A stretch of DNA of 64,000 nt from Escherichia coli (GTDB lineage: Bacteria > Pseudomonadota > Gammaproteobacteria > Enterobacterales > Enterobacteriaceae), in the NCBI RefSeq assembly GCF_044324875.1, contig NZ_CP172185.1; one strand, 5' to 3'. Below the pieces are notes generated by a model, which was not told the DNA's origin, made no database searches, and was given only the letters and a program-made list of their open reading frames with translations. This document shows, piece after piece, positions 3,189 to 57,984 of this stretch. The position numbers and the translations under genes are program-made. Each line of letters opens with the position of its first letter. Position 1 is the stretch's first letter.

Positions 3189-3351
3189 TTCCGCTCTCAG
3201 GATAGCCTGAAGTTGACTATTTCGGGCTATCCAGAACCGCACAGCCATTTGAACAGGCTGATTTTCTCTGTCTGCATAACATTCGATATCCGCGCCATTA
3301 CCTGTCATCATGTGACTGCTCCCCGCCCTGTCGGGCAAGGCTTCCCACTTC

Positions 3352-4521
3352 TTAAGCCGCAACCGTCTGTGCTACGGATTTATGCTGGCCTCCATGGGCA
3401 GAAACGACGAGTCCCGCCGCTTGTAATTCCAGTATGCCCTTGCGTTTGATGTTGAGCGCCGCGTTGATATCGCGGTCATGTTCAACTCCACACTCTGGAC
3501 ACTGCCAGATGCGCTTATGTAATGGCATCTCCGACATTTTGTGACCGCAGCAGTGGCAGGTTTTCGAACTGGCGAACCATTGATCCAGTTTCACCAGATG
3601 CACACCTTTCTCTGTTGCTTTGTATTCCAGTTTTGTGATGAATCCAGACCATCCAGCATCGCCTATCGCACGAGCCAGATGGTGATTTTTCATCATATTT
3701 GCCGTTTTCAATGTCTCGACAATTACCGCTTGGTTTTCGTCAACAATTGCGCGAGATAACTTGTGCTGGAAATCGGCACGGGCACTGGCTACCCGTTCGT
3801 GAACGGCTGCAAGTTGTATTCTGGCTTTGCGCCTGTTTGCGTTCCCTTTTTTCTTACGGGACAGTGCTTTCTGCTTCCGGCGAAGGTTGCGACTTGCATT
3901 GATTAGGTGGCGGGGACTGGCAATTTTATTGCCGTCCGATTTGATGACAAAATGCGCCAGCCCCATATCCAGCCCTGTCACATTTGATATCAGTGCAGGC
4001 TTTGCCGGCGCTTCCATCCCGTCGTCACAAAGTAACGACGCGTAGTATTTCCCGGTTGCGCTGCGGCTCAACGTGATACTTTTCAGCATTCCCGTAATTT
4101 CACGATGTAAACGCGCTTCAATCGGCAAGATTTTCGGTATTTTTATCGCACCATCAAGGACTTTTATGCCAACACAATGATAGCTCGATTGTCTGCCGTG
4201 TTTACTTTTAAAGGTAGGTTTACCTGCTTTCAGTTTCGGATTGAAAAAGTTAGAAAAAGCCACGTCGAGGTTAATTACCGCCTGCTGCAACGCAATAGAA
4301 TCATATTCTTTAAGCCATCCATACCGGCGGGATTTCTTCGCCACTGCAAGCAGTGGTTTGAGGTCTTTACGCGGGTTTAAATTTACGCGGTGCCGCTGGT
4401 AAGAATGTTTCTTGATATGCAGAGCTTTGTTGTACGCAAAACGCACTGCACCGAACTGGGCGTTGATAAATTCAGCCTGTTCTGGTGTCGGGTAGATGCG
4501 TACTTTTGTTGCTCTTAACAT
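3352..4521 (-). CDS. tnpB: TnpB (IS605 OrfB family, RuvC-like RNA-guided nuclease)
   Basis: 389 aa; N-terminus MLRATKVRIYPTPEQAEFINAQFGAVRFAYNKAL typical of OrfB; putative RuvC triad residues in GLDMGLAHF, IVETLK and HDRDINAALNI; C-terminal zinc-finger cysteines CHCCGHK...CPECG. Confidence 0.85.
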   Translation of the reverse strand: MLRATKVRIYPTPEQAEFINAQFGAVRFAYNKALHIKKHSYQRHRVNLNPRKDLKPLLAVAKKSRRYGWLKEYDSIALQQAVINLDVAFSNFFNPKLKAGKPTFKSKHGRQSSYHCVGIKVLDGAIKIPKILPIEARLHREITGMLKSITLSRSATGKYYASLLCDDGMEAPAKPALISNVTGLDMGLAHFVIKSDGNKIASPRHLINASRNLRRKQKALSRKKKGNANRRKARIQLAAVHERVASARADFQHKLSRAIVDENQAVIVETLKTANMMKNHHLARAIGDAGWSGFITKLEYKATEKGVHLVKLDQWFASSKTCHCCGHKMSEMPLHKRIWQCPECGVEHDRDINAALNIKRKGILELQAAGLVVSAHGGQHKSVAQTVAA

Positions 4522-4577
4522 AATCAGCGCTCATTGATATAATGCTTTTATTTTAACACTTTAGGTAAATATATCAA

Positions 4578-5003
4578 TTGAGTAATCATGATGATTTACT
4601 GGCGGGATTTCTCCGCAAACGACACAGTGTCAGTAAGCTGGTTGTGCACCTTATTTTTACGACAAAGTATCGACGCAAACTATTCGACAGTCAGATGATC
4701 GCTCAGTTGCGTGAGGCTTTTGGCTCCGCTGCGGCAAAGCTTGAATGCGAAATTATTGAGATGGACGGGGAGCCAGACCATGTACACCTGCTGGTTGCCT
4801 ACCCGCCAAAACTGGCGGTCAGTGTGATGGTCAATAATTTAAAATCGGTATCATCACGTTTGCTACGCCAGCAGAACGCGCATTTACGTATGCAGAGTAA
4901 AACGGGGCTTTTGTGGTCGAGATCGTACTTTGTCTGTAGCACCGGAGAGGCAACGATTGAAACGCTCAGAGCCTACGTTCAGAGTCAGTCAACACCTGAT
5001 TGA
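4578..5003 (+). CDS. tnpA: IS200/IS605-family TnpA (HUH Y1 transposase); start codon uncertain
   Basis: 141 aa; motifs HLIFTTKYRRKLF, HUH HVHLL and catalytic-Tyr region SRSYFVCSTG; no in-frame ATG near the 5' end, so the ORF track used TTG at 4578. Confidence 0.75.
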   Translation: MSNHDDLLAGFLRKRHSVSKLVVHLIFTTKYRRKLFDSQMIAQLREAFGSAAAKLECEIIEMDGEPDHVHLLVAYPPKLAVSVMVNNLKSVSSRLLRQQNAHLRMQSKTGLLWSRSYFVCSTGEATIETLRAYVQSQSTPD

Positions 5004-5132
5004 TCTTTAAAGCCCTGCGGGCTTTTCGCCTTATATCCCCGCCCGCATTGGGCGAGGGTTTACGGCGTTTTTCGCTAAGCAATGACTACCCTGTTTCGCT
5101 TGCATCTCCGGTGAGTTTTGCCACCCTTATAA

Positions 5133-10706: not shown

Positions 10707-10792
10707 ACATTTAAGCTGATGACCACCGCGCTTTTTATTGACCATTTTGCACGCAAACTGGAAAACCTGGCGTCGTCATCTATTCTTAAAGG

Positions 10793-10895
10793 GCAAGGCA
10801 ACTAAGCCTGCATTAATGCCAACTTTTAGCGCACGGCTCTCTCCCAAGAGCCATTTCCCTGGACCGAATACAGGAATCGTGTTCGGTCTCTTTTT
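10793..10895 (+). ncRNA. sdsR: SdsR (RyeB) Hfq-dependent sRNA; antisense RyeA/SraC expected on the opposite strand across the same locus
   Basis: Recognised sequence GCAAGGCAACTAAGCCTGCATTAATGCCAACTTTTAGCGCACGGCTCTCTCCCAAGAGCCATTTCCCTGGACCGAATACAGGAATCGTGTTCGGTCTCTTTTT, ending in a terminator hairpin plus U-tract; located in the yebY-pphA intergenic region as in K-12. Confidence 0.7.
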
Positions 10896-11029
10896 ATCTG
10901 TTAAAAGCCAGAAGCATTCCCTTCGCTGACTTTATAGTCAACCATAACACACACTCTACTGTCTGAGTCCAGCGTTTTTTAACATTCTTGTTAAGATTAT
11001 GTGATCTTTAGCGCGGGAGGAAAATATTG

Positions 11030-22352: not shown

Positions 22353-23068
22353 TGCACAGAAAACCCCCAGCTAGGCTGGGGGTTCCGGAAAGCTTTCAGC
22401 TTTGAGCCAGTTATTAAAACCCCTTTTGATTTGTTAAAACACCTTGCGGTCTGGCAACTGCAAGTGTCAAACAAGTGTCAAACAAGAAATCAAAAGGGGG
22501 TCCCAATGGGGAACGAAAAGAGCTTAGCGCACACCCGATGGAACTGTAAATATCACATAGTATTTGCGCCAAAATACCGAAGACAGGTGTTCTACAGAGA
22601 GAAGCGTAGAGCAATAGGCTGTATTTTGAGAAAGCTGTGTGAGTGGAAAAGTGTACGGATTCTGGAAGCTGAATGCTGTGCAGATCATATCCATATGCTT
22701 GTGGAGATCCCGCCCAAAATGAGCGTATCAGGCTTTATGGGATATCTGAAAGGGAAAAGCAGTCTGATGCTTTACGAGCAGTTTGGTGATTTGAAATTCA
22801 AATACAGGAACAGGGAGTTCTGGTGCAGAGGGTATTACGTCGATACGGTGGGTAAGAACACGGCGAAGATACAGGATTACATAAAGCACCAGCTTGAAGA
22901 GGATAAAATGGGAGAGCAGTTATCGATTCCCTATCCGGGCAGCCCGTTTACGGGCCGTAAGTAACGAAGTTGGATGCAAATGTCAGATCGTGTGCGCCTG
23001 TTAGGGCGCGGCTGGTAAGAGAGCCTTATAGGCGCATTTGAAAAACCTCCGGCTATGCCGGAGGATAT
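22353..23068 (+). mobile_element. IS200-like insertion sequence (about 0.7 kb; boundaries approximate)
   Basis: Contains an IS200-type tnpA; 5' region has a perfect hairpin (cccccagc-tagg-gctggggg, 22364-22382) and a long stem pairing ccccttttgatttgtt with aacaagaaatcaaaaggggg that would sequester the RBS; inserted between the htpX terminator and the yebQ stop. Confidence 0.6.
22506..22964 (+). CDS. tnpA: IS200 TnpA (HUH Y1 transposase)
   Basis: 152 aa from MGNEKSLAHTRWNCKYHIVFAPKYRRQVFY; HUH motif DHIHMLVEIPPK; near-identical to Salmonella IS200 TnpA as I recall it. Confidence 0.88.
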   Translation: MGNEKSLAHTRWNCKYHIVFAPKYRRQVFYREKRRAIGCILRKLCEWKSVRILEAECCADHIHMLVEIPPKMSVSGFMGYLKGKSSLMLYEQFGDLKFKYRNREFWCRGYYVDTVGKNTAKIQDYIKHQLEEDKMGEQLSIPYPGSPFTGRK

Positions 23069-26460: not shown

Positions 26461-27129
26461 TCCTTCCTCAATCTTGAGTAACCCCGTCGTTGAAGGGTTA
26501 CTCAATTCATCCTGATTATACGCACTGTCATGGTGCAACTGCTTCAAATTAAAACTCTGGTCTGACTTCAAATAATTATCATATTATTTATTTGCGTAAC
26601 GGGATATCAGAAAAAGATATTTAGCCCATTAATTTATTAGGATGTTTACATCGGATTTGTGATTAAGCGTGGTATTATTTATTAGCGAAACGTTTCTCTC
26701 TTGATTTTTTTGCGCATTTATCAATTTTTCTTATTTTAAATTTACAATACCTTTGGCGATTGACTTCTCTTTGGGGTGATCTATAGCCGTTAACTGACTG
26801 TTTTATGAGAAAAAGTGATATAACTTTTTATTCATTGCATAGCAGAAAATGTGATATTGCACGCACTATGTAATAACTTCTCCCACTGGCCTGGAACAAC
26901 TGAACTTATTGAACTATGTTAGAAAATACGTCAGTTTAAGTATCTGCCTGAACTGGCAAGGTTAAGCACAATGATATATCGGCGCGTATTCCGTTGCATA
27001 AGTGTGCAAAAAAAGTGGAAGACGTATCGAGATTTGTGCGTCTGATCGAGACATGTTTAAAAATGGCTTGCCATAATTAACGTTGTATGTGATAACAGAT
27101 TTCGGGTTAAACGAGGTACAGTTCTGTTT

Positions 27130-27273
27130 ATGTGTGGCATTTTCAGTAAAGAAGTCCTGAGTAAACACGTTGACGTTGAATACCGCTTCTCTGCCGAGCC
27201 TTATATTGGTGCCTCATGCAGTAATGTGTCAGTTTTATCTATGTTATGCCTGCGGGCGAAGAAAACAATCTAA
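27130..27273 (+). CDS. yobF: Small protein YobF (47 aa; missed by the ORF track)
   Basis: ATG at 27130; translation [47 protein letters not shown]; ends 12 bp before cspC. Confidence 0.75.
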
Positions 27274-27285
27274 GGAATTTTTCAA

Positions 27286-27495
27286 ATGGCAAAGATTAAA
27301 GGTCAGGTTAAGTGGTTCAACGAGTCTAAAGGTTTTGGCTTCATTACTCCGGCTGATGGCAGCAAAGACGTGTTCGTACACTTCTCTGCTATCCAGGGTA
27401 ATGGCTTCAAAACTCTGGCTGAAGGTCAGAACGTTGAGTTCGAAATTCAGGACGGTCAGAAAGGTCCGGCAGCTGTTAACGTAACAGCTATCTGA
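27286..27495 (+). CDS. cspC: Cold-shock-domain protein CspC
   Basis: 69 aa [40 protein letters not shown]1/RNP2 motifs. Confidence 0.93.
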
Positions 27496-27660
27496 TCGAA
27501 TCCACTGATCTGAAGTGTGAATACGCTTCAATCTCGCTATAAAGCCTCGTCGAATGCGAGGCTTTTTACTTTGCTTTATCTTCGCTCCAGTCGTTCGGAT
27601 ATTTGCCCGCCGCGTGATTCGCGTTACACTTGCGGCCTTTAGTGTCCTGCCGGAGTTGTC

Positions 27661-44973: not shown

Positions 44974-46659
44974 TTGAAGAAGGTTTGGCTTAACCGTTAT
45001 CCCGCGGACGTTCCGACGGAGATCAACCCTGACCGTTATCAATCTCTGGTAGATATGTTTGAGCAGTCGGTCGCGCGCTACGCCGATCAGCCTGCGTTTG
45101 TGAATATGGGGGAGGTGATGACCTTCCGCAAGCTGGAAGAACGCAGTCGCGCGTTTGCCGCTTATTTGCAACAAGGGTTGGGGCTGAAGAAAGGCGATCG
45201 CGTTGCGTTGATGATGCCTAATTTATTGCAATATCCGGTGGCGCTGTTTGGCATTTTGCGTGCCGGGATGATTGTCGTAAACGTTAACCCGTTGTATACC
45301 CCGCGTGAACTTGAGCATCAGCTTAACGATAGCGGCGCATCGGCGATTGTTATCGTGTCTAACTTTGCCCACACTCTGGAAAAAGTGGTTGATAAAACCG
45401 CCGTTCAGCACGTAATTCTGACCCGTATGGGCGATCAGCTATCTACGGCAAAAGGCACGGTAGTCAATTTCGTTGTTAAATACATCAAGCGTCTGGTGCC
45501 GAAATACCATCTGCCAGATGCCATTTCATTTCGTAGCGCCCTGCACAACGGCTACCGGATGCAGTACGTCAAACCCGAACTGGTGCCGGAAGATTTAGCT
45601 TTCCTGCAATACACCGGCGGCACCACAGGTGTGGCGAAAGGCGCGATGCTGACTCACCGCAATATGCTGGCGAACCTGGAACAGGTTAACGCGACCTATG
45701 GTCCGCTGTTGCATCCGGGCAAAGAGCTGGTGGTGACGGCGCTGCCGCTGTATCACATTTTTGCACTGACCATTAACTGCCTGCTGTTTATCGAACTGGG
45801 TGGGCAGAACCTGCTTATCACTAACCCGCGCGATATTCCAGGGTTGGTAAAAGAGTTAGCGAAATATCCGTTTACCGCTATCACTGGCGTTAACACCTTG
45901 TTCAATGCGTTGCTGAACAATAAAGAGTTCCAGCAGCTGGATTTCTCCAGTCTGCATCTTTCCGCAGGCGGAGGGATGCCTGTTCAGCAAGTGGTGGCAG
46001 AACGTTGGGTGAAACTGACTGGACAGTATCTGCTGGAAGGTTATGGCCTGACCGAGTGTGCGCCGCTGGTCAGCGTTAACCCGTATGATATTGATTATCA
46101 TAGTGGTAGCATCGGTTTGCCGGTGCCGTCGACGGAAGCCAAACTGGTGGATGACGACGACAACGAAGTACCACCGGGTCAACCGGGTGAGCTTTGTGTC
46201 AAAGGACCGCAGGTGATGCTGGGTTACTGGCAGCGTCCGGATGCTACCGATGAGATCATCAAAAATGGCTGGTTACACACCGGCGACATCGCGGTGATGG
46301 ATGAAGAAGGATTCCTGCGCATTGTCGATCGTAAAAAAGACATGATTCTGGTTTCCGGTTTTAACGTCTATCCCAACGAGATTGAAGATGTCGTCATGCA
46401 GCATCCTGGAGTACAGGAAGTCGCGGCTGTTGGCGTACCTTCCGGCTCCAGTGGTGAAGCGGTGAAAATCTTCGTAGTGAAAAAAGATCCATCGCTTACC
46501 GAAGAGTCACTGGTGACTTTTTGCCGCCGTCAGCTCACGGGCTACAAAGTACCGAAGCTGGTGGAGTTTCGTGATGAGTTACCGAAATCTAACGTCGGAA
46601 AAATTTTGCGACGAGAATTACGTGACGAAGCGCGCGGCAAAGTGGACAATAAAGCCTGA
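44974..46659 (+). CDS. fadD: Long-chain fatty acyl-CoA synthetase
   Basis: 561 aa from a TTG start ([25 protein letters not shown]); AMP-binding motif [11 protein letters not shown]. Confidence 0.92.
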
Positions 46660-46678
46660 GCGTTAAGTCAGTCGTCAG

Positions 46679-46704
46679 ACGCCGGTTAATCCGGCGTTTT
46701 TTTT
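46679..46704 (+). terminator. Intrinsic terminator after fadD
   Basis: cgccgg-ttaat-ccggcg followed by tttttttt. Confidence 0.55.
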
Positions 46705-54816: not shown

Positions 54817-55037
54817 TACTTTCAGCCCGCGTTGTCGCGGGCTTCCCATCTGTAATCCTCCCTGATTCTTCTCTGATATGGTGCTAAAAAGTAACCAATA
54901 AATGGTATTTAAAATGCAAATTATCAGGCGTACCCTGAAACGGCTGGAATAAACCATTTTCAGCGCATTCACCGAAGGAGGGAAAAGGATGCTGCAAATC
55001 CCACAGAATTATATTCATACGCGCTCAACGCCTTTCT

Positions 55038-55045
55038 GGAATAAA
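55038..55045. repeat. Target-site duplication (GAATAAAC), left copy
   Basis: Identical 8 bp directly flanking both IS66 ends (55038-55045 and 57489-57496). Confidence 0.75.
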
Positions 55046-55083
55046 CGTAAGCGTACAGCGAGGGCCGTATTGACGGGGATGTG

Positions 55084-56622
55084 TTATTCAGCTGGCAGTG
55101 CTATGCGCCACGGAAGCAGTTCGCTGACCCGGTTGACCGGCCAGTCTGCTATGACGCCAAGCACATGGCGAAGGTAGCTTTCTGGATCCACGTCATTCAG
55201 TTTGCACGTCCCTATCAGGCTGTACAGTAGCGCTCCCCGCTCACCACCATGGCCAGAGCCGAAGAACAGGAAGTTTTTACGACCCAGACTTACCGCCCGC
55301 AGGGCATTTTCAGCGATGTTGTTGTCGATTTCCACCCAGCCATCGTTCGCATAGTACGTCAGTGCCGGCCACTGGTTAAGTGCGTACGCGAACGCCTTCG
55401 CCAACTCTGAGTGTCGCGACAGGGTCTTCATCTTTTCACGCAACCAGCTTTCCAGGGATTTCAACAGCGGTTTCGTTTTTCGCTGACGTTCAGCAAGCCG
55501 CTGCTCTGCCGGCATTCCCCTTATATCCGCCTCTATGGCGTACAACTGACCGATCTGCTCCAGGGCTTCTTCCGTCAGTGCTGACGGGATGCGGACGTGC
55601 ACATCGTGGATCTTTCGGCGGGCATGAGCCCAGCAGGCAGCTTCCGTTATCCCACCATTGCGATACAGCTCGTTGAACCCGGCGTACGCATCCGCTTGCA
55701 GCACACCGCTGAAGCAAGCAAGATGAGTCTGCGGATGGATGCCTTTTCTGTCCGGGCTGTAAGCGAACCACACTGCAGGTGCCAACGCTGACCCGGCATT
55801 GCGGTCATCACGAACATACGCCCACAACCGCCCGGTCTTCGTCTTCTTATTACCCGGCATCAGTACCTGGACCGGGGTATCATCGGCATGGAGTTTGCCG
55901 TCAGTCATGACATAGCCATGAAGCGCCTCTTCCAGCGGAGACAGCAGCCGGCAGCATGCATCCACCCAGCCCGACAGCAGTGAACGGCTCAGCTCCACAC
56001 CTTGCCGGCCGTATATTTCTGACTGGCGATACAGCGGGGTGTGCTCTGCATACTTCGAGGTCAGCACGCGGGCCAGCAGCCCCGGTCCGGCGATACCCCG
56101 CTCGATGGGCCGCGAAGGTGCAGGTGCCTGCACGATGGCATCGCACTGAGTACAGGCATGTTTTTCCCGTACCGTCCGGATAACCCGGAAGGCGCTACGC
56201 ATCAACTCCAGCTGTTCGGCGGTATCCTCGCCCAGATAGCTCAGTGAACCGCCGCAGTTCGGGCAGCACGGCGCCGCAGGCAACAGTCGCTTTTCGTCAC
56301 GGGGTAGTGATTCAGGGAACGGCTTACGGATGCGGGTCTGACGCAACGGACGCTGTACTGCCGGGTCATACACCCTACCAGTCAGCGTATCGCTCTCTTT
56401 CTGAAGCTGGTTCAGATCGGCTTCCATTTGTGCGATACGGCGGGAGACTTTTTCGGAACGACTGCCGAAGTTCATCCGGCGGAGTTTATCCAGCTGCGCC
56501 TGCAGATGGTCTATTTCGCGCTCCCGGTTGCTCAGCTTTTCCTGCAGGGCGTGGATCAGCGCTTCCTGTTCGGCCAGGCGCTGTTTCAGCAGGAAGATGT
56601 CGTCAGAAGAGATGTCGTTCAT
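55084..56622 (-). CDS. IS66-family transposase (TnpC/Orf3)
   Basis: 512 aa; leucine-zipper-like N-terminus, CPNCGG zinc motif and conserved DDE-type core typical of IS66 transposases. Confidence 0.88.
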
Positions 56623-56671
56623 AAGCCCGTATTTTACCGGGCTTATTCTGTGACAACCAGGATAAAGAGAT

Positions 56672-57019
56672 TTACAGCATGGTCAGGGAGGTCAGCAGCC
56701 GCTTAGGCTGTCGCCAGTCGATACCTTCCAGCAGCATCGCCAGCTGCGCCTGTGTAAGGAACACTTTGCCATCACGGGCTGACGGCCAGGCGAAGCGCCC
56801 ACGCTCCAGCCGTTTGGTCAGGAGGCACAGTCCGTCACCGGTGGACCACAGCAGTTTAACCTGACTGCCGCTGCGGCCCCGGAAAATGAAAACATGGCCG
56901 GACATGGGATCGTCTTTCAGCGCCGTCTGTACTTTCGCAGCCAGGCCGTTGAAGCCATTTCTCATATCGGTGATACCGGCAACCAGCCAAATTTTGGTCC
57001 CGGAAGGTAAAGGGATCAT
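56672..57019 (-). CDS. IS66 Orf2 (TnpB-named accessory protein; unrelated to IS605 TnpB)
   Basis: 115 aa beginning [31 protein letters not shown]; overlaps orf1 by 4 bp. Confidence 0.85.
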
Positions 57020-57417
57020 CGCTTCAGTTCCTGTATCAGCAGAGTCAGGAGCTTTTCGCTGACATTGCCATTGAAGCGGAGCGTCCCGTGCCGGAACGTT
57101 ACCTCACAGCTGATACTGAGGGTTTCCGGGTCCTCTGCGAGCGATTCTGGCTGTTCGGCAGCTGCATCGAGAGTCACAGGAAGTAGCTGGGGGCTCTCTG
57201 AAGAAGGTAATAGCAGCTTTCCCTCGCGCCATTGTTGTCGCCATTTGAACAACAGATTGGCGTTAATGCCATTTTCAAGAGCAAGTTTTGAGATGGATAT
57301 CCCGGGTTCACAGGAGGCAGCAACGAGCTGCTGTTTAAATTCGGGAGGATAATTAGGGCAGCCTTTTCGCCTGCCGGGAGTCACATTTTTCTGCATATCT
57401 GACACTTTGGTTCCCAC
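57016..57417 (-). CDS. IS66 Orf1 (TnpA-named accessory protein, helix-turn-helix)
   Basis: 133 aa; first ORF of the IS66 operon. Confidence 0.8.
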   Translation of the reverse strand: MGTKVSDMQKNVTPGRRKGCPNYPPEFKQQLVAASCEPGISISKLALENGINANLLFKWRQQWREGKLLLPSSESPQLLPVTLDAAAEQPESLAEDPETLSISCEVTFRHGTLRFNGNVSEKLLTLLIQELKR

Positions 57418-57488
57418 TACTTATTTGGTGGACACCACTTTGTCTAATTCGTCAGATTCTGACCAGACGGTTCAGGCTGTACGCTTAC

Positions 57489-57496
57489 GAATAAAC
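57489..57496. repeat. Target-site duplication (GAATAAAC), right copy
   Basis: See left copy. Confidence 0.75.
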
Positions 57497-57801
57497 AAAC
57501 TGCGCCTGCCGGAATATTCGAACGTCATCTTGATAAAGGAACGCGCCCGGGAGTTTACCCACGCCTTTCCGTTATGCATGGGGCGGTCAAATATCTCGGC
57601 TACCCTGATGAACACAGTGCAGAGCCTGATCAAGTGATCCTTATCGAAGCGGGGCAGTTTGCGGTGTTCCCTCCAGAAAAGTGGCACAACATTGAAGCCA
57701 TGACTGACGATACTTATTTCAACATTGACTTCTTCGTTGCTCCTGAAGTCCTGATGGAAGGCGCGCAACAACGGAAAGTCATTCATAACGGGAAATGAAT
57801 C

Positions 57802-57984
57802 ATGGGCAAAGCAACGTATACCGTGACCGTCACCAATAACAGCAATGGCGTTTCTGTCGATTATGAAACAGAGACGCCGATGACTTTGCTGGTGCCAGAA
57901 GTGGCGGCTGAAGTGATAAAAGATCTGGTGAATACCGTGCGTTCTTATGACACGGAAAACGAACATGATGTTTGTGGTTGGTAA
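57802..57984 (+). CDS. yoaG: Small protein YoaG (DUF1869)
   Basis: 60 aa ORF 3 bp after the yeaR stop; forms the yeaR-yoaG operon in K-12. Confidence 0.8.
   Translation: MGKATYTVTVTNNSNGVSVDYETETPMTLLVPEVAAEVIKDLVNTVRSYDTENEHDVCGW

Follow-up and report, generated by a model that had tools for sequence, protein, structure and literature searches.

In Escherichia coli, the yeaR-yoaG operon is described as being under positive control by NarL and negative control by NsrR (Lin et al., 2007, as cited in PMC5320621 and PMC4959519), a mode of regulation that the preliminary description of the locus analyzed here had also put forward. Both genes are induced about 160-fold in nitrate-grown CFT073 (PMC5320621), and deletion of yeaR in UTI89 leads to lower H2O2 resistance, type 1 piliation and early bladder colonisation (PMC4959519). 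In addition, insertions of IS186 in yeaR recur in laboratory-evolved antibiotic-resistant E. coli lines (PMC6307192), and mutations in the gene arose in parallel during the evolution of E. coli in the gut of wild-type mice (PMC4674774). A further allele, yeaR::IS421, interrupted by an element of the IS4 family, is carried by 251 of 5426 complete E. coli genomes, including the B/BL21-type strains BLR(DE3), C2566 and C3029 as well as strain C; these laboratory strains, which are in wide use, are therefore natural yeaR mutants. In E. coli INSC1002, taken as an example (L003, 2163-3500), the inserted IS421 is 1338 bp long and is accompanied by a 12-bp duplication at codons ~37-41. The yeaR::IS4-type junction of the IS421 genomes is also present in E. 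coli ECO3183 (L004, 3793-4320), where a truncated IS comes after it, together with a deletion that takes the 3' end of yeaR, yoaG, yeaQ, dgcP, yoaF, yeaO and part of nimT.

With respect to the mobile element, members of the IS66 family have imperfect terminal inverted repeats of ~20-30 bp that start with GTAAGCG. Target duplications of 8 bp have been reported for them (PMC6778807). ISEc8 belongs to this family, isoforms being assigned to it at a nucleotide identity of at least 95% to the reference element (ISfinder convention). Near full-length ISEc8 is found in 3334 of the 5426 complete E. coli genomes, at a median of 4 places per genome.

Our analysis shows that, in the window (the whole 64,000-nucleotide stretch of E. 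coli DNA that was analyzed), the coding sequence of yeaR runs from an ATG at 54989 to a stop at 57796-57798 and is interrupted by a complete element of this kind (Table 1). The repeats computed from the sequence delimit an element of 2442 bp, which bears exact 13-nt terminal inverted repeats, GTAAGCGTACAGC, at 55047-55059 and, as the reverse complement, at 57476-57488; when extended, the repeat is imperfect, with 18 of 22 positions paired. The two termini are the only exact occurrences of GTAAGCGTACAGC in the 64-kb window. A perfect 8-bp direct repeat, GAATAAAC, abuts both ends of the element. Such an arrangement is not plausibly due to chance, given that what lies between the repeats is a three-gene unit of IS66 type with 100% identity to other copies of ISEc8. 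The terminal repeats, the 8-bp duplication and the assignment to the IS66 family, all proposed in the preliminary description, are thus borne out, the last of them by NCBIfam and Pfam matches; the length given there, 2443 bp, exceeds the actual one by 1 bp.

Table 1. Position of the features of the yeaR-yoaG locus and of the inserted element in the window.
Feature	Coordinates	Strand	Basis
Intact NsrR operator, AAATGGTATTTAAAATGCAAATT, in the yeaR promoter, upstream of the insertion	54900..54922	+	match to published site
yeaR 5' fragment: codons 1-19 and first base of codon 20	54989..55046	+	sequence, excision
Residual 62-aa ORF: YeaR residues 1-19 and 43 IS-encoded residues, stop inside the IS	54989..55177	+	
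Target-site duplication, copy 1, GAATAAAC	55039..55046	.	computed
ISEc8 (IS66 family), complete, 2442 bp	55047..57488	-	100% identity to many RefSeq copies
Terminal inverted repeat IRR, transposase-distal end of the gene array	55047..55068	.	13/13 exact, 18/22 extended
tnpC, IS66-family DDE transposase, 512 aa	55084..56622	-	NF033517 457 bits; = WP_000997962.1
TnpB, IS66 accessory protein, 115 aa	56672..57019	-	NF033819 120 bits; = WP_000612591.1
TnpA, IS66 accessory protein, 126 aa	57016..57396	-	NF047595 97.6 bits; = WP_001171554.1
Terminal inverted repeat IRL, adjoining tnpA	57467..57488	.	computed repeats
Target-site duplication, copy 2, GAATAAAC	57489..57496	.	computed
yeaR 3' fragment: remainder of codon 20 through stop, without promoter or start codon	57497..57798	+	
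yoaG, 60 aa, intact	57802..57984	+	= WP_000513737.1; PDB 1nei

The gene content of the element agrees with this assignment. The order is that of the IS66 family, tnpA-tnpB-tnpC on the minus strand, the start of tnpB and the stop of tnpA overlapping as ATGA and tnpC coming after a gap of 49 nt from tnpB. TnpA, TnpB and the transposase all score above the NCBIfam equivalog cut-offs for their IS66 counterparts, and tnpC carries the Pfam domains LZ_Tnp_IS66, zf-IS66, DDE_Tnp_IS66 and DDE_Tnp_IS66_C. Together with tnpA and tnpB, a DDE transposase with IS66 domains, an 8-bp duplication and termini that start with GTAAGCG place the element in the IS66 family. As had been anticipated, its three genes lie antisense to yeaR.

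Over its whole length of 2442 bp, the element matches, at 100% identity, many copies found in complete E. coli genomes and plasmids of RefSeq; the transposase of these copies bears the name 'IS66-like element ISEc8 family transposase'. A comparison copy (L002) differs from it by 1 nt, and the identity to the copies of O157:H7 is 99.3%. Using the identical copies named by RefSeq/PGAP as a proxy for the reference, the isoform threshold is exceeded, in support of what had at first been a guess from element size. The element is ISEc8, a name that rests on the RefSeq/PGAP naming of its identical copies; it is an already known and ordinary element, which represents neither a new kind of element nor a new mechanism. 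At all nine further ISEc8 copies sampled in other genomes, the termini were the same and the 8-bp duplication was perfect, and no target consensus was evident among the 10 ISEc8 duplications beyond a mild AT bias (4-7 of 8). A target shared with the ISEc8 copy of H26, for which the Megablast alignment exceeded the IS ends by a few bases, was considered and rejected as a chance resemblance; that copy adjoins rspB and is flanked by a different duplication, CAATAGAA.

The insertion splits codon 20 (Q20) of yeaR between its first and second bases, within one base of the position after codon 19 that had been proposed. In silico excision of 55047-57496 or, equivalently, 55039-57488 (2450 bp in both cases) yields a 119-aa ORF ending at 57798, whose product is identical to the RefSeq YeaR protein WP_000939323.1. 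The precise reconstruction that had been predicted is therefore achieved, although not with the interval originally suggested for removal: excision of 55046-57496 (2451 bp) disrupts the reading frame and leaves a 65-aa product. The reconstructed YeaR has a Pfam DUF1971 domain at residues 12-96 and matches PDB 3bb6. Since the break after residue 19 falls within these residues, the domain is destroyed, and since translation from the native start can yield no more than a 62-aa chimera, yeaR is a null allele and YeaR is lost in this strain. The tandem arrangement of YeaR (DUF1971) and YoaG (DUF1869) downstream of leuE identifies the locus as yeaR-yoaG. It is syntenic with that of strain AF40, from which the excised locus departs by five substitutions with no internal gaps; the two strains encode identical YeaR, YoaG and YeaQ proteins. 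The 11-mer CTGGAATAAAC occurs twice in the native leader and coding sequence of yeaR, at 54944-54954 and 55036-55046, 92 bp apart, and its second copy contains the 8-bp target of ISEc8; this recurrence near the target is probably a coincidence.

The occupied locus seems to be restricted to the strain under study. The 4.2-kb occupied locus and a 200-bp junction probe were both without a match among the 5426 complete E. coli genomes, and the 36-mer junction CCTTTCTGGAATAAACGTAAGCGTACAGCGAGGGCC had no exact match in GTDB representative genomes or in JGI metagenome contigs. The 4-kb left flank reaches a best identity of 99.1% among the same complete genomes, most of which lie at 95-99%. The source strain is therefore not part of this collection, and the yeaR::ISEc8 allele appears to be private to it.

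Taken as a whole, we hold it to be very likely that an intact ISEc8 transposed into chromosomal yeaR with the 8-bp target duplication that is usual for the family. Given that the duplication is perfect, that the three ORFs are intact and that copies with 100% identity to the element exist in other strains, we infer that the insertion would be evolutionarily recent, and the copy may possibly still be active. In its consequences, the event is a routine, strain-specific IS knock-out of a dispensable stress gene of unknown function. For annotation purposes, yeaR of this strain should be recorded as a pseudogene interrupted by ISEc8.

A neutral loss is not the sole way to read this knock-out. The loss of yeaR could instead be adaptive, this insertion being one among several independent knock-outs and having been favored by selection in the host gut or under stress, a view that the 251 genomes with yeaR::IS421, the recurrent IS186 insertions of the antibiotic-resistant lines and the parallel mutations in the mouse gut all support. 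However, the 251 IS421 genomes may stem from few events and would then reflect inheritance rather than repeated selection, a contiguous yeaR-yoaG is kept in 4964 of the 5426 complete genomes, and the phenotypes of the UTI89 deletion mutant described above count against this view. With this evidence on both sides, we consider adaptive loss rather unlikely. A broader proposal, that yeaR is a recurrent and selection-favored IS target, hit by at least three IS elements of different families (ISEc8, IS421 and IS186) in addition to the mouse-gut mutations, seems to us quite doubtful; if it were true, yeaR::ISEc8 would be another independent adaptive loss of a gene induced by nitrosative stress. Together with the IS421 and IS186 alleles, yeaR::ISEc8 adds one observation to the question of whether the gene is lost neutrally or through selection.

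Beyond yeaR itself, the insertion bears on the expression of yoaG. The 23-nt NsrR site upstream of yeaR is an exact match to the yeaR site of CFT073 (PMC5320621, Table 4). The insertion adds 2450 bp between the yeaR promoter and yoaG, so that the native promoter is separated from an intact downstream gene, as had been described. The start of yoaG lies 3 nt past the yeaR stop, a spacing that suggests that translation of yoaG is coupled to that of yeaR. Long untranslated RNA is a classic substrate for Rho-dependent termination. Beyond the stop at 55177, transcripts initiated at the yeaR promoter would run through ~2.3 kb of IS sequence that is antisense and untranslated, and would thereby be subject to Rho-dependent polarity, while the putative coupling of yoaG to yeaR would be lost. 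As a consequence of the exposure of this RNA to Rho and of the broken coupling, yoaG is expected to have lost its proper induction by nitrate or NO in this strain, where, judging from the sequence, it is probably silent.

Alternatively, the insertion may have inactivated yeaR with no polar effect, yoaG being expressed by read-through or from a promoter located in or near the IS end or in the yeaR 3' fragment. The very strong induction of the yeaR promoter, as reported for CFT073, would favor read-through, and so would the finding that a terminator scan of low power detected a single weak terminator-like hairpin (57316-57332) on the plus strand within the IS. Conversely, no sigma-70-like plus-strand promoter was found near 57400-57800, in a scan of low power that also misses the known, activator-dependent yeaR promoter, and both the length of the untranslated RNA, which suits Rho-dependent termination, and the 3-nt spacing between the two genes speak against unimpaired expression of yoaG. 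We therefore regard non-polar inactivation as unlikely. An Rfam scan of the window returned nothing in or beside the yeaR/IS region.

Finally, the placement of a repeat-collapsed ISEc8 copy inside yeaR by mistake during assembly is extremely improbable: the element is multicopy in many strains, where assemblers can err, and the junction is present in no other genome or metagenome contig of the collections searched, but a perfect 8-bp duplication of yeaR sequence flanking complete IS termini is not what a misassembly would generate; it is the signature of real transposition, found also at the nine sampled copies. On the reading that we prefer, a transposition of ISEc8 into yeaR, it can be proposed more speculatively that the NO- and nitrate-inducible yeaR promoter might drive antisense transcription through the ISEc8 transposase gene, in which case the activity of the IS would be coupled to nitrosative stress.

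The ISEc8 copy is one of three insertions by which the window, otherwise collinear with strain AF40, differs from it. A 1763-bp insertion of IS200/IS605 type occupies the ptrB-yebE intergenic region (3312-5074); it encodes a Y1 transposase TnpA (4578-5003, plus strand) and a 389-aa TnpB of the RNA-guided-endonuclease type (3352-4521, minus strand), and it is without target duplication, as expected for the IS200/IS605 family. The remaining one, an IS200 of ~0.7 kb (22356-23067), lies between htpX and the end of yebQ, and contains a TnpA ORF (22503-22964) and an Rfam match to STnc490, the IS200 leader (22362-22496). Elsewhere in the window, Rfam matches correspond to the SraC/RyeA-SdsR/RyeB pair (10755-10899), a cspA-type thermoregulator leader upstream of a csp gene (27110-27570) and sroD (46618-46703), which are expected RNA features of the core genome and in no way unusual.

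When compared to known systems, the element in yeaR shares with ISEc8 its length, the tnpA-tnpB-tnpC order, identical proteins, the GTAAGCG termini and the 8-bp duplication; the element itself shows no difference, and its location in yeaR alone is new with respect to the collections searched. The closest counterpart as an allele is yeaR::IS421, in which an IS in the same gene likewise inactivates YeaR and parts the promoter from yoaG, whereas the inserted element belongs to the IS4 family, is shorter (1338 bp), generates a 12-bp duplication and lies ~52 bp further into yeaR. Moreover, yeaR::IS421 is widespread, while the ISEc8 allele was seen only here. The IS186 insertions (PMC6307192) involve another IS and arose under laboratory antibiotic selection, and they have in common with yeaR::ISEc8 the intragenic disruption of yeaR by an insertion sequence.
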